From IMG/VR virus record IMGVR_UViG_3300037247_001786, positions 256,001 through 320,000 of that record: DNA of 64,000 bases, one strand, 5' to 3'. This document shows, one piece after another, positions 7,384 to 43,301 of this stretch (position 1 is the stretch's first letter; each line of letters starts with the position of its first letter). The position numbers were made by a program, and so were the translations under genes. The stretch comes from a virus. Taxonomy: Duplodnaviria; Caudoviricetes. The notes below the pieces were generated by a model. The model saw only the letters and a program-made list of their open reading frames with translations. It ran no database searches and was not told the DNA's origin.

Positions 7384-8541
7384 ATGAATATTAATGCTTT
7401 TATATTAATGGGAAATTGGCTGGAACGTACTTCTACTCTTGATAAGATCAAGGCATCTATGGGTGAATATGAGTTAGAAGTATATGATGAGTCTTACAGT
7501 TGGGAGTACGTCCAACAAGCCCTTTTAGAGCATTCTTGTTTTGACCAGAATAAATTAATAATCATTAATGGATTGCCTTCAGTAAAAGATAAAGATCCAT
7601 CTGCTTCTAGAACTAAAGTTCTTAATGGTTTAAAAAAGATACTTCCTATGGTTGACGGGAATACCTGTGTTGTTCTTAATGGGATAACAATAACAAGTAA
7701 GAAGTTTTTGGATGCTGTTAACGAGAAAGTACACATAAAAAGCTTTGATATAACTGTTCCCAAAAGAAACGCCCAGGGAAGTGCGGTTAAGAGATTGGTA
7801 GCTTATTTTACATCAAAAGATAAAACGATTAATGATAGTGATGCATATCTTGCAGTTGATTCTATTAATTATAATAGCAAGGATGTTAATCTTGATAAGG
7901 TTTTTCTTATGGCTAAGAAAATAGAAAATCTTGTTGGTGGACGAAAGAAAGTCACTCATGAAGATATAGTATCGATATGTTCTCTGTCTCCTGATTTTTT
8001 AATATGGAATCTTTTTAAAGCTTTAGATAATCAAGATTTTGCGGAGGCTTTAGCATTAATAGATAAGATAGCCAGCAGGAGTCTTTCTTTTGAACATGAA
8101 ATAATAATGGCTCTTAGTGTAATGATATGGAAATTTAGACAGTTACTATTTGTTCGGTCTTGTTTAGATAGCGGTTTAAAGATCAAAGATATAGAAGTCA
8201 GTTTAGGAAGGCTAGTTAAATGGAATAAAAGCGGTCAGGGGGTAAGACGACATGTAGTCCCTCAAGAGACTAAGAAGGATAAAACTCCTATCTCTATGTA
8301 TACAAAGCCATCGATAAATATGTTATTTAATAATACTTATGGAAAATCTCCGATATCTTGTTACTCACAAGAGCATCTTTTAAGAGTACTCCCTATAACC
8401 GAGATGTGTTTAAGAAAAATAAGGTCGGGATGCTCAGAAGGAGAAATAAGAATAGTATTAGAGATACTTTGCTTAGTGATTTGTAATGAAGTAGAATATA
8501 ATGTTGCAAAAGAGATTTTTAAAAGTAATTATTGTTTATAA
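7384..8541 (+). CDS. DNA polymerase III delta subunit-like (HolA)
   Basis: SCFDQNKLIIING, AKKIENL...VTHEDIVSI, IWNLFKAL..QD...AL and helical C-terminus; lies next to dnaX/dnaN. Confidence 0.6.
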   Translation: MNINAFILMGNWLERTSTLDKIKASMGEYELEVYDESYSWEYVQQALLEHSCFDQNKLIIINGLPSVKDKDPSASRTKVLNGLKKILPMVDGNTCVVLNGITITSKKFLDAVNEKVHIKSFDITVPKRNAQGSAVKRLVAYFTSKDKTINDSDAYLAVDSINYNSKDVNLDKVFLMAKKIENLVGGRKKVTHEDIVSICSLSPDFLIWNLFKALDNQDFAEALALIDKIASRSLSFEHEIIMALSVMIWKFRQLLFVRSCLDSGLKIKDIEVSLGRLVKWNKSGQGVRRHVVPQETKKDKTPISMYTKPSINMLFNNTYGKSPISCYSQEHLLRVLPITEMCLRKIRSGCSEGEIRIVLEILCLVICNEVEYNVAKEIFKSNYCL

Positions 8542-41266: not shown

Positions 41267-41989
41267 ATGATAAACACAATTATACATGGCGATTGTAGGA
41301 AGATTTTTCCAGAGATACTAAAGGAGCATAAAGTTTCTTTAGTAGCCTCTGATCCTCCTTACAATATTTGTTTTGGCAAATATGAAGATAAGGGAGGGAA
41401 GGGGTATAAGGACAATTTACCTGATGATGAATACATAGAATTGTTATCTACATTTAAGGGGTGCCCTTCTGCTATTATACATTACCCAGAAGAGATGATG
41501 AAATACGTTGTCCCTGCTTTGGGAGTCCCTGAAGAAGTTCTAGCTTGGTGCTATCCATCTAACATAGGAAAAAAGTTTAGATTGATTAATATCTATGGCA
41601 AAAAACCTAAATTTTCAAAAGTAAGACGACCATATAAAAATCTAAATGATAAGAGGATTCAAGAACGTATCCGTAATGGTAGTAAAGGTGCTCCTTTGTA
41701 TGATTGGTTTGATGACATAAATATAGTCAAAAATGTCAGTAAGGAGAAGACAATTCACCCTTGCCCGATACCTATAGCCCTAATGGAAAGGATTATTTTA
41801 CTACTGACAGATGAGGGAGATTTAGTTATAGACCCGTTTTCTGGTTCAGGAACAACGGCTTTAGCCTGTATTAGATTAAAAAGACAATATATCGGTATAG
41901 AGATGTCAAAAAAGTATTGTGATTTAGCTAATGAGCGTATTAAATTGGAGAAAGAGAAGGTTGATATTTTTAAAGGACTTTCTACTTGA
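41267..41989 (+). CDS. DNA methyltransferase (N6-A/N4-C, beta class)
   Basis: SDPPY, HPCPIP and IDPFSGSGTT. Confidence 0.9.
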   Translation: MINTIIHGDCRKIFPEILKEHKVSLVASDPPYNICFGKYEDKGGKGYKDNLPDDEYIELLSTFKGCPSAIIHYPEEMMKYVVPALGVPEEVLAWCYPSNIGKKFRLINIYGKKPKFSKVRRPYKNLNDKRIQERIRNGSKGAPLYDWFDDINIVKNVSKEKTIHPCPIPIALMERIILLLTDEGDLVIDPFSGSGTTALACIRLKRQYIGIEMSKKYCDLANERIKLEKEKVDIFKGLST

Positions 41990-42013
41990 AAGTGATAATA
42001 TATTCGATACAAT
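41990..42013 (+). promoter_or_regulatory. Promoter motif AAGTGA-N12-TACAAT
   Basis: Directly after the MTase stop. Confidence 0.7.
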
Positions 42014-42099
42014 ATGCTTAGGTATATATTTAATAGTTCTACCATAGAATAGCGTGAGGGACTATTAAAAAAATAATATGCTATTCAGAGGGTTAAGTA

Positions 42100-42237
42100 A
42101 TGATAGCCAAAATCAAGAATTGGGGAATTTGTGCATGGGTAAAGAAAAGATCGTATGAAAGAAAAAGATATAAAGATTTAAAAGAGATAGCAAAGCAAGA
42201 AAGATTATGGGATATGAGATTAAGAGGAGAAAGATAA
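42100..42237 (+). CDS. Small basic hypothetical protein (45 aa; absent from the ORF track)
   Basis: GAGGG RBS; MIAKIKNWGICAWVKKRSY... Confidence 0.5.
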   Translation: MIAKIKNWGICAWVKKRSYERKRYKDLKEIAKQERLWDMRLRGER

Positions 42238-42253
42238 TAAAAAAAATACTTGA

Positions 42254-42277
42254 AAGTGATTAATTTTCTGGTACAAT
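42254..42277 (+). promoter_or_regulatory. Promoter motif AAGTGA-N12-TACAAT driving the structured RNA
   Basis: Predicted +1 (~42284-42285) coincides with the first base of the closing stem. Confidence 0.75.
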
Positions 42278-42284
42278 GAGTAAC

Positions 42285-42689
42285 GTAATAAAAGTATTTG
42301 CGGTGCTGTGTGAAAACGTTGAGAGGCGAAGCACTGAGACCACTTGAAAAGCTTTTATCCCGTTTGCAACCGAAGAGGTCAGGGTCAAAGAGTTTAATAG
42401 ATGGTGGGTATAAAAACTTGTCCCACGGTATCGAGGGCGTTTGGAAGCTGATCTAGACAGCAAACCATAAATCGTAGCAAGTAGCAGAGAAGTGCAGGAA
42501 AAAGATATTGTTCTGCATGGAGCCAATCTTGCCAAACACTTTTATTGCATTTTAAAAATAGAATGTCAGTGGCGTGAGTAAAAGGAGAGTTCGGAACAAT
42601 TACTTGCGTGCATTCAGGTGCAACGGCCGCAGGATACTTACGAATTATCGAAGCTGTTATCAAATTCCTGCCTGACATTTTATTTTTTT
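42285..42689 (+). ncRNA. Candidate large structured ncRNA, family unidentified
   Basis: No long + strand ORF; raised GC; closing stems 42285-42300/42533-42548 and 42553-42569/42672-42688 plus many internal helices. Confidence 0.72.
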
Positions 42690-42708
42690 ATTATGGGAAA
42701 GAAGAACT

Positions 42709-42915
42709 ATGACTAAAACTTTAATTGAGTTAAGAGAAGAATTTGAAGAGATGGCAGTAAATTGCATGTTCGATATAGAACGTAATTCAAATGGTGAATA
42801 TGAAAACACCGGAAGAAACACTTTTATGTTATGGGCAGGGTATTGGGAATGTGCTAGGATTAATGGTATAATAATCGGCAAAGATGCAGAATTTAAAAAT
42901 GCAAATAAAATTTAG
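42709..42915 (+). CDS. Hypothetical protein between the ncRNA and tmRNA
   Basis: 68 aa; the last base of its TAG is G1 of the tmRNA. Confidence 0.65.
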   Translation: MTKTLIELREEFEEMAVNCMFDIERNSNGEYENTGRNTFMLWAGYWECARINGIIIGKDAEFKNANKI

Positions 42916-43263
42916 GGGGTAAAAGGCATCGATTCCTATAGTTGAAAATTAAATAGCGTGTACGAGATGGTAGTTGGCTCGTTAAAAATCTACTAAAGTT
43001 GACTTAATTGACAACAGTTTTGCAATGGCTGCCTAGTCCGAAACTAGGTTGTTTACTCCTGATTCCTGTTAGGGAAGTAAGCACGATAACAGGATAGTTG
43101 AATGTTATTTGTCTCAAGATGACCTGATGCGAAAATGATTTGGGATAGAAAATATGAACCACGTTAATTTGGGTCAAATTTTTGAAATCTAAATAGTTAA
43201 CTACACACGTAGACGTTTAGTTGGAAAGTAGAGAAGACGCGAGTTCGAATCTCGCTACCTCCA
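42915..43263 (+). ncRNA. ssrA: tmRNA (one-piece), tag (A)DLIDNSFAMAA
   Basis: Acceptor GGGGGTA/TACCTCC-A with G3:U70; T-arm GCGAG-TTCGAAT-CTCGC; pk1 ACGAG/CTCGT + GTAG/CTAC; tag ORF 43001-43036. Confidence 0.95.
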
Positions 43264-43265
43264 AT

Positions 43266-43301
43266 AAAAGCCCTGACTTTTAATTAAGTTGGGGCTTTTT
43301 T
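43266..43301 (+). terminator. Intrinsic terminator after the tmRNA
   Basis: AAAAGCCCTGACTT-loop-AAGTTGGGGCTTTTTT. Confidence 0.85.

Follow-up and report, generated by a model that had tools for sequence, protein, structure and literature searches.

Does the DNA just ahead of the tmRNA gene of a huge phage encode an RNA of its own and, if so, how long is that RNA, does it belong to a known family, and what might it do beside the tmRNA? The window, by which we mean the whole 64,000-nucleotide stretch that was analyzed, comprises bases 256001-320000 of an IMG/VR phage record that is 460,978 bp long, has direct terminal repeats, and derives from marine-sediment DNA. The tmRNA is the one RNA gene that Rfam detects in the window, and the genes around the locus are all on the + strand. 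A sequence-only reading had placed a novel structured RNA of about 405 nt at positions 42285 to 42689, transcribed ahead of the tmRNA. The placement agrees with what we found: a real structured non-coding RNA lies behind its own promoter, and the linkage to tmRNA holds in 10 of 10 members. The proposed size does not hold, for the segment kept in all members is 42285-42548 alone (domain 1), and the 405 nt are not one unit. The locus contains the following elements.

42250 to 42277, + strand: sigma-70-type promoter (TTGAAA-16-TACAAT, with a TG extension)
42285 to 42548, + strand: domain 1, a conserved structured RNA of 264 nt, recognized by covariance model R1 and covariation, with no Rfam match
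42553 to 42688, + strand: domain 2, a putative optional module with a 17-position closing stem and a U-run after it
42709 to 42915, + strand: 68-aa ORF in a variable slot, no Pfam family
42915 to 43266, + strand: tmRNA, the constant downstream neighbor (Rfam RF00023, 101.4 bits)
43266 to 43299, + strand: intrinsic terminator, the end of the unit

Relatives of the locus were reached via a 257-aa protein located 1 kb upstream (17 relatives in a large protein collection), and further ones via DNA-pattern scans made from conserved blocks. Domain 1 is present in eight distinct full-length copies (the window; L003, to which L015 is identical; L012; L013; L014; L016; L020; and L026) and in two truncated forms in related phage contigs (L027 and L005). 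Neither blastn against GenBank phages nor scans of IMG/VR with single flanking proteins produced a match. The GTDB pattern matches L017-L019 were rejected as chance (nhmmer E values of 0.002-0.009 over the pattern only, no model match). The distribution is narrow, at about ten contigs, including four IMG/VR records (the window's own, L016, L026, and L027). The carriers are a clade of huge (300-460 kb) marine-sediment phages, with one copy per genome in two long records.

Among the seven copies compared, pairwise identity is 63-80% in domain 1 and 56-91% in the tmRNAs of the same loci; because these ranges are similar, we consider domain 1 to be about as constrained as the tmRNA. Family members are about 210-290 nt long, the L016 copy being 212 nt. 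Covariance model R1 (255 positions, with the outer half of the closing stem P1 trimmed before building) scores the eight full-length members at 215-257 bits and the window copy at 251.8 bits. The window copy has every feature by which the R1 family is recognized: the eight-helix fold P1-P6a, the invariant GGUAUCGAG, AAAUCGUAGCAAGUAGC, and AGCYAAUCUUG, and a phage tmRNA downstream. It is almost certain that 42285-42548 is a member of a real conserved structured RNA family.

In the overall plan of the fold, the long stem P1 joins the first transcribed bases to the 3′ end, and four branches carry near-invariant loops and joining strands. In the window, the elements of domain 1 are located as follows.

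42285-42300 / 42533-42548, + strand: P1, the closing stem
42301-42311 / 42326-42336, + strand: P2 hairpin with conserved loop GUGUGAAAACGUUGAGAGGCGA
42340-42343 / 42404-42407, + strand: P3, which encloses P3a and a variable tip
42349-42355 / 42389-42395, + strand: P3a
42424-42429 / 42436-42441, + strand: P4 hairpin with near-invariant loop GUAUCGAGRG
42442-42449 / 42459-42467, + strand: P5 hairpin
within 42468 to 42532, + strand: near-invariant stretch AAAUCGUAGCAAGUAGCAGAGA
42477-42481 / 42528-42532, + strand: P6
within 42493-42517, + strand: P6a, a hypervariable hairpin

RNAalifold, run on seven sequences, predicted 54 pairs, and compensatory double changes affect 24 of these (8 of 14 in P1). 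Pairs were also counted in a model-based alignment of the eight sequences, with controls in which the partners were slid by 1-3 columns and with 500 shuffles. Standard pairs occupy 94.6% of the pair cells (37-44% in the slid controls), double-sided changes occur in 22 of 51 pairs (0-4 in the slid controls), and the covariation score is 0.41 (0.04-0.08 in the slid controls); 0 of 500 shuffles reach the observed value in any of these three measures. Compensatory change in the homologs is therefore strong, and the covariance model and the pair counts support the eight-helix fold. Folding energies of single sequences do not stand out (z = −1.3 to −2.4), and the case for structure is made by covariation, not by thermodynamics.

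Most of the helices that the sequence-only reading had drawn from one sequence reappear in this fold. Its 16-position closing stem (42285-42300/42533-42548) forms 15 of 16 pairs by eye and has alignment support in addition. Its CGGTGCT/AGCACTG helix is P2, which the homologs keep with compensatory changes (changes on both sides in 5 of 10 pairs), and its GCTG/CAGC helix is the tip of P5, where double-sided changes affect 6 of 7 pairs. The proposed TGCAGGA/TTCTGCA pairing corresponds to P6a and likewise shows compensatory changes in homologs; the sequence and length of this hairpin are wholly different between members, and it is missing in L016. Two other proposals did not survive the comparison. 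The GTGGG/CCCAC helix (42404/42422) is displaced, as G42404-G42407 pair with CCAC at 42340-42343, and 42424-42429 pair with 42436-42441. The AAACG/CGTTT pseudoknot (42314/42361) is not conserved, as the 42361 side differs in homologs.

The register of P3 is CCAY/RUGG, and CCUA/UAGG in L012; all eight members pair by eye, and R42404 covaries with Y42343. The model-fitted alignment counts one unpaired P3 cell, where L012 is offset by one column. In P4, pair 139:152 is G-C in four members, U-A in three, and C-G in one. Position 42422 covaries with 42436 as C-G or U-A (columns 145:159), and we tentatively suggest a 2-bp tertiary pairing, 42422-42423/42435-42436, that would make a small pseudoknot at P4. 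Unpaired sequence is near-invariant in five places: the P2 loop, GGGUAUAAAAA, the P4 loop GUAUCGAGRG, AAAUCGUAGCAAGUAGCAGAGA, and AGCYAAUCUUG.

The two truncated members retain part of this architecture.

L027:3212-3319, − strand: truncated "mini" form, 48.8 bits
L005:6546-6660: truncated "mini" form, 17 bits

In these mini forms P1, P2 (with its loop removed), P3, and P3a are kept, P4-P6 are missing, and the tmRNA follows 5-52 nt downstream. Another relative, L007, has the tmRNA and is without the domain 1 RNA, and the RNA is therefore dispensable.

Could the conservation instead be that of a protein? The region might be a decayed coding region, or it might carry small − strand ORFs (91 and 94 aa), with the apparent structure due to chance. 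The − strand is indeed stop-poor in several members, and the single-sequence minimum free energy z-scores are weak. Against this, each homolog differs from the window by 3-6 indels that are not multiples of three, so that no frame survives any of the pairwise comparisons, and mismatches fall evenly on each of the three codon phases, without periodicity. The 22 compensatory pairs, against 0-4 in slid controls, and the many G-U pairs, which fit the + strand alone, also oppose an explanation without an RNA gene. On the + strand, the absence of a long ORF noted in the sequence-only reading is borne out, with none above 52 aa within 42285-42689. The 91- and 94-aa antisense ORFs, whose conservation would have spoken for a protein, are not conserved at the protein level, and we attribute them to chance because of the frame-breaking indels and the flat substitution phases. 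Judged from these sequence patterns, the domain 1 RNA is non-coding, and the reading without an RNA gene is largely refuted; we give it hardly any credence.

The claim that the RNA has a promoter of its own also stands: the sigma-70-type promoter at 42250-42277 points in the + direction, like the RNA, and its predicted transcription start (about 42284-42285) is the first base of P1. The GC content of the RNA region is raised, as had been claimed (0.42-0.47, compared with about 0.30-0.35 in nearby sequence). The + strand of the window has four copies of the promoter core CTTGAAAGTGAT (at 41985, 42249, 43570, and 47095), against 0.73 expected by chance, and these copies probably mark one temporal class of phage promoters. 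The RNA is preceded by the same promoter as in the window in L003, L013, and L020, and by TTGACA-17-TATAAT in L012 and L026. Just 5′ of the RNA/tmRNA promoter, the window and three relatives have a very basic 45-aa ORF in the same position; one of these relatives is without a full RNA, and the window copy matched no Pfam family. The copies, matched by position, are located as follows.

Window 42100-42237: 45-aa basic ORF
L003:6202-6339: 45-aa basic ORF
L005:6254-6391: 45-aa basic ORF
L020:2215-2352: 45-aa basic ORF

The window's own sequence was found in no RNA run. Contigs of relatives are present in two metatranscriptomes from different studies. A 645-nt sediment contig runs from sequence like the end of module X (an upstream element described below) through domain 1 into the first ~110 nt of the tmRNA, and a 217-nt salt-marsh contig covers the P2 region. 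These contigs show presence in RNA libraries, which can carry DNA, and show neither ends nor strand.

The partner downstream is constant: each of the ten members has a tmRNA 3′ of the RNA, in the same orientation. ARAGORN reported no tmRNA in the window, despite the 101-bit Rfam match, and surveys based on this program would miss this type of phage tmRNA. SmpB (PF01668) is absent from the whole 461-kb phage genome; the phage tmRNA must therefore use the host SmpB, which makes SmpB an obvious candidate partner.

Between 20 and 630 nt separate the RNA from the tmRNA, and this gap is filled differently in different members.

L012 and L016: gap of about 20 nt to the tmRNA G1
L014 and L026: gap holds a second RNA module
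Window: gap is that second module and the 68-aa ORF
L003: gap is an ORF-free stretch of about 240 nt, followed by two ORFs
L013: gap is a short ORF and a GC-rich stretch
L020: gap is a half-size LAGLIDADG gene whose stop overlaps the tmRNA G1

With a gap of only about 20 nt, L012 and L016 have no room for a second promoter, and it is likely that in such compact members domain 1 is co-transcribed with the tmRNA. The 68-aa ORF of the window contains a TG-extended promoter-like site (42843-42872, TTGGGA-18-TATAAT) ~40 nt 5′ of the tmRNA; this site may serve as a separate promoter for the window tmRNA.

The inserted ORFs are mutually unrelated, the 68-aa ORF being unlike those at the same place in L003 and L020. 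The suggestion that the 68-aa ORF is a partner of the RNA has therefore been dropped, as the slot elsewhere holds unrelated ORFs, a LAGLIDADG gene, or nothing. The LAGLIDADG-type ORF is 110 aa long (L020:2946-3278; PF03161, 26.7 bits), and a stop codon lies over the tmRNA G1 in two unrelated ORFs, this one and the 68-aa ORF of the window (42913-42915). In L013, the ~110 nt directly 5′ of the tmRNA (L013:780-913) are GC-rich, ORF-free, and unlike the other modules, with no Rfam match at the gathering score.

These arrangements bear on whether the RNA serves the tmRNA precursor in cis. As a pre-tmRNA leader, it would act as a structured 5′ cap against 5′-end-dependent decay, as a block to Rho termination of a long untranslated transcript, or as a guide for tmRNA folding or processing, and it would have no function after cleavage. 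Such a role would suit an RNA that is always first after the promoter, whose P1 begins at the predicted +1, and which is the direct neighbor of the tmRNA G1 in L012 and L016. The mini variants, which retain P1-P3a alone immediately 5′ of the tmRNA, are a hint of a possible cis role of the 5′ half toward the tmRNA. A leader of this kind fits less well with the 350-630 nt of unrelated cargo that the window, L003, L013, and L020 carry in the gap. Because such cargo is tolerated, the RNA need not touch the tmRNA, and a role in trans or at the 5′ end fits better than one as a folding aid. The strongest conservation (the GGUAUCGAG loop, AAAUCGUAGCAAGUAGCAGAGA, and AGCCAAUCUUG) lies in P4-P6, beyond what a protective stem would need. 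Conserved pairing with the tmRNA is also lacking: a column-wise search for complementarity of at least 7 nt between domain 1 and the tmRNA found none held in all members, and hence no anti-tmRNA arm, and whole-molecule duplex prediction gave meaningless giant duplexes. We regard the cis leader as possible, with odds clearly against it.

To compare domain 1 with known RNAs, Rfam 15 was searched with cmscan: the window at the gathering score, 42000-42950 at E ≤ 10 with lax filters, and L016:1400-2060 at E ≤ 10. Domain 1 matches no family at E ≤ 10, including GOLLD, ROOL, RNase P, group I introns, and tmRNA. The expectation of the sequence-only reading that no catalogued family would match is thus confirmed. 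That reading had also seen no hallmarks of RNase P or of group I/II introns, and we concur. The bacterial A/B and archaeal RNase P RNAs have no match at E ≤ 10, the P4 motifs GGAAAGUCC and ACAGAA...GGCUUA are absent, and the candidate partners of an RNase P pairing are already occupied by the covariation-supported P3a. For group I introns and GIR1 there is no model match, the adjoining tmRNA is intact, and a LAGLIDADG ORF follows the RNA in one member only. The tmRNA clan (CL00001) matches 42915-43266 only, with nothing in domain 1 at E ≤ 10, and inspection of domain 1 by eye found no tag-like conserved frame with a stop and no tRNA-like acceptor or T-arm. The likeness to tmRNA (RF00023) and tmRNA-like phage RNAs is one of sharing a locus and, probably, a transcript; by eye, the P4 loop GGUAUCGAG is also similar to the GGYAUCGAU found at the tmRNA 5′ end in these same phages.

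The same searches bear on two further functions. A ribozyme might process the precursor at its own 3′ end, at the tmRNA 5′ end, or through an RNase-P-like activity, and the size, the multi-helix junction, and the invariant unpaired bases of domain 1 would suit a catalytic core placed where a cut must occur. Such an enzyme is very unlikely given that RNase P types, group I/II introns, GIR1, and small self-cleavers have no match at E ≤ 10, that the RNase P motifs are absent from the sequence, and that the distance to the tmRNA is so variable. A riboswitch-like sensor of a metabolite, a tRNA, or a protein, controlling read-through into the downstream ORFs and tmRNA, would accord with the 5′ leader position, the compact near-invariant loops and possible small P4 pseudoknot, and the U-rich tracts that follow P1 or domain 2 in several members. 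Yet riboswitch and T-box models give no match at E ≤ 10, and the sequence after P1 is not conserved, differing in every member. It holds no conserved terminator, antiterminator, or alternative pairing, including one that would sequester a ribosome binding site. The regulated "gene" would, moreover, be a stable RNA. We consider a sensor improbable.

How does domain 1 compare with other orphan RNAs? The sequence-only reading had offered a new large-RNA class or a distant member of GOLLD or ROOL; the first part is upheld, and distant kinship with the second is not, as neither the GOLLD (RF01998) nor the ROOL (RF03087) covariance model matches at E ≤ 10. Both are phage RNAs found near tRNA genes and without known function, and GOLLD is sometimes covalently linked to tRNAs (PMC12286853). 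The likeness consists in an elaborate RNA, borne by a phage or prophage, beside a tRNA-type gene, here a tmRNA. The differences are that domain 1 is about 265 nt long, compared with about 580 and more than 800, that its helix plan is different, and that its partner is specifically a tmRNA. As a functional kind, GOLLD and ROOL are marked by homo-oligomeric nanocages, and a multimer of domain 1 would be conjectural. Stable RNAs without known function also occur in the tRNA cluster of phage T4: species 1 and 2, of about 120-140 nt, are co-transcribed with tRNA-type genes and released by host tRNA-processing enzymes. They are shorter than domain 1 and belong to another phage group, and we liken them by description only. 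The raiA motif RNA (RF03072) and other orphan RNAs of 200-300 nt have a similar size, a covarying multi-branch fold, and high conservation; raiA differs in being bacterial and chromosomal, and its model does not match domain 1. The main texts of a catalogue of 10,006 candidate viral RNAs (PMC10690425) and of a huge-phage survey (PMC7162821) describe nothing similar. The best reading is that domain 1 is a new, uncatalogued class of phage RNA. The family is real and new, its distribution is narrow, and its link to phage tmRNA is both unique and constant.

We rank the functional readings in the order of a stable RNA acting in trans, a cis leader, a sensor, and a ribozyme. The trans reading is favored because cargo is tolerated, no pairing with the tmRNA is conserved, there is no expression platform, and the loops and junctions are the most conserved parts. 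Against it stand the mini forms, the dispensability seen in L007, the rarity of the family, the promoter-like site within the 68-aa ORF of the window, and the lack of conserved complementarity to the tmRNA; nor did a partner protein come to light. We propose that the phage promoter drives domain 1, whatever follows it (optional modules and small ORFs), and the tmRNA as one transcript. The 5′ ends of tmRNAs are made by RNase P, and host RNase P, cutting at the tmRNA G1, would split domain 1 from the tmRNA. The upstream product in compact members would therefore be domain 1 with a ~20-nt tail. With both ends locked in P1, domain 1 would be stable and would persist, its production matched to that of the tmRNA. 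It would not be a switch; it would act in trans in the phage's use of ribosome rescue, most likely through a protein or ribosome that it binds or through self-assembly. We hold this full reading, that of a trans-acting stable RNA co-transcribed with the tmRNA and freed by RNase P, somewhat short of even confidence.

A more specific conjecture, which we consider doubtful, is that domain 1 founds an ornate class of phage RNA coupled to tmRNA, which captures host SmpB, EF-Tu, or ribosomes, or self-assembles into a tmRNA-carrying multimer, as GOLLD does with tRNAs. If capture or a multimer were true, the phage would thereby control how ribosomes are rescued and proteins tagged while it infects its host. 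To our knowledge, large structured RNAs without known function are rare, and each one studied (OLE, GOLLD, ROOL, and raiA) gave an unexpected RNA architecture. Unlike these four, domain 1 has a specific and constant partner, the phage-encoded tmRNA, which leads to concrete hypotheses about trans-translation, SmpB, and RNase P processing. At about 265 nt (212 nt in L016), it is also small enough for direct structural work.

The remainder of the proposed 405 nt is domain 2. Its closing stem, drawn by the sequence-only reading at 42553-42569/42672-42688, is real, with 16 pairs by eye including one G-U. The domain as a constant part of the RNA is not, as 42553-42688 is recognizable in two other loci only (L026:8092-8240 and L014:4492-4602) and is hence an optional add-on. 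By eye, the three share the ends CAG-UGGCG ... UGC-CUG and show two compensated positions in the closing stem; their interiors are unalignable with MAFFT. Five of the eight full-length members, including L012, L016, and L020, have no recognizable domain 2, and the L003 spacer is weakly similar. Apart from the ends of domain 2, the optional modules of different loci are not alike. We regard domain 2 as a modestly supported optional module. In L026, a 17-nt direct repeat, TATTGTTCTTTAAAAAT, flanks domain 2 (8083-8099 and 8225-8241), and in L012, L014, and L016 this sequence stands immediately before the tmRNA as its leader. The flanking repeat suggests that domain 2 may have entered by insertion or recombination.

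Because modules and ORFs before the tmRNA vary, we view the leader as a modular array of which domain 1 is the most constant element. Made up of module X, domain 1, domain 2, and inserted ORFs, this array is relevant to the question of why tmRNAs occur in huge phages at all. Module X is a conserved, ORF-free element of ~240 nt located directly 5′ of domain 1 in L014 (3831-4100) and L016 (1557-1796). It is absent from the window's genome and has no Rfam match at E ≤ 10. A TTGACA-17-TATAAT promoter precedes it, and it contains UAUGG and CCUAAG, the halves of the 11-nt tetraloop-receptor motif, together with a GAUACCCUUCGGGAUUCG hairpin.
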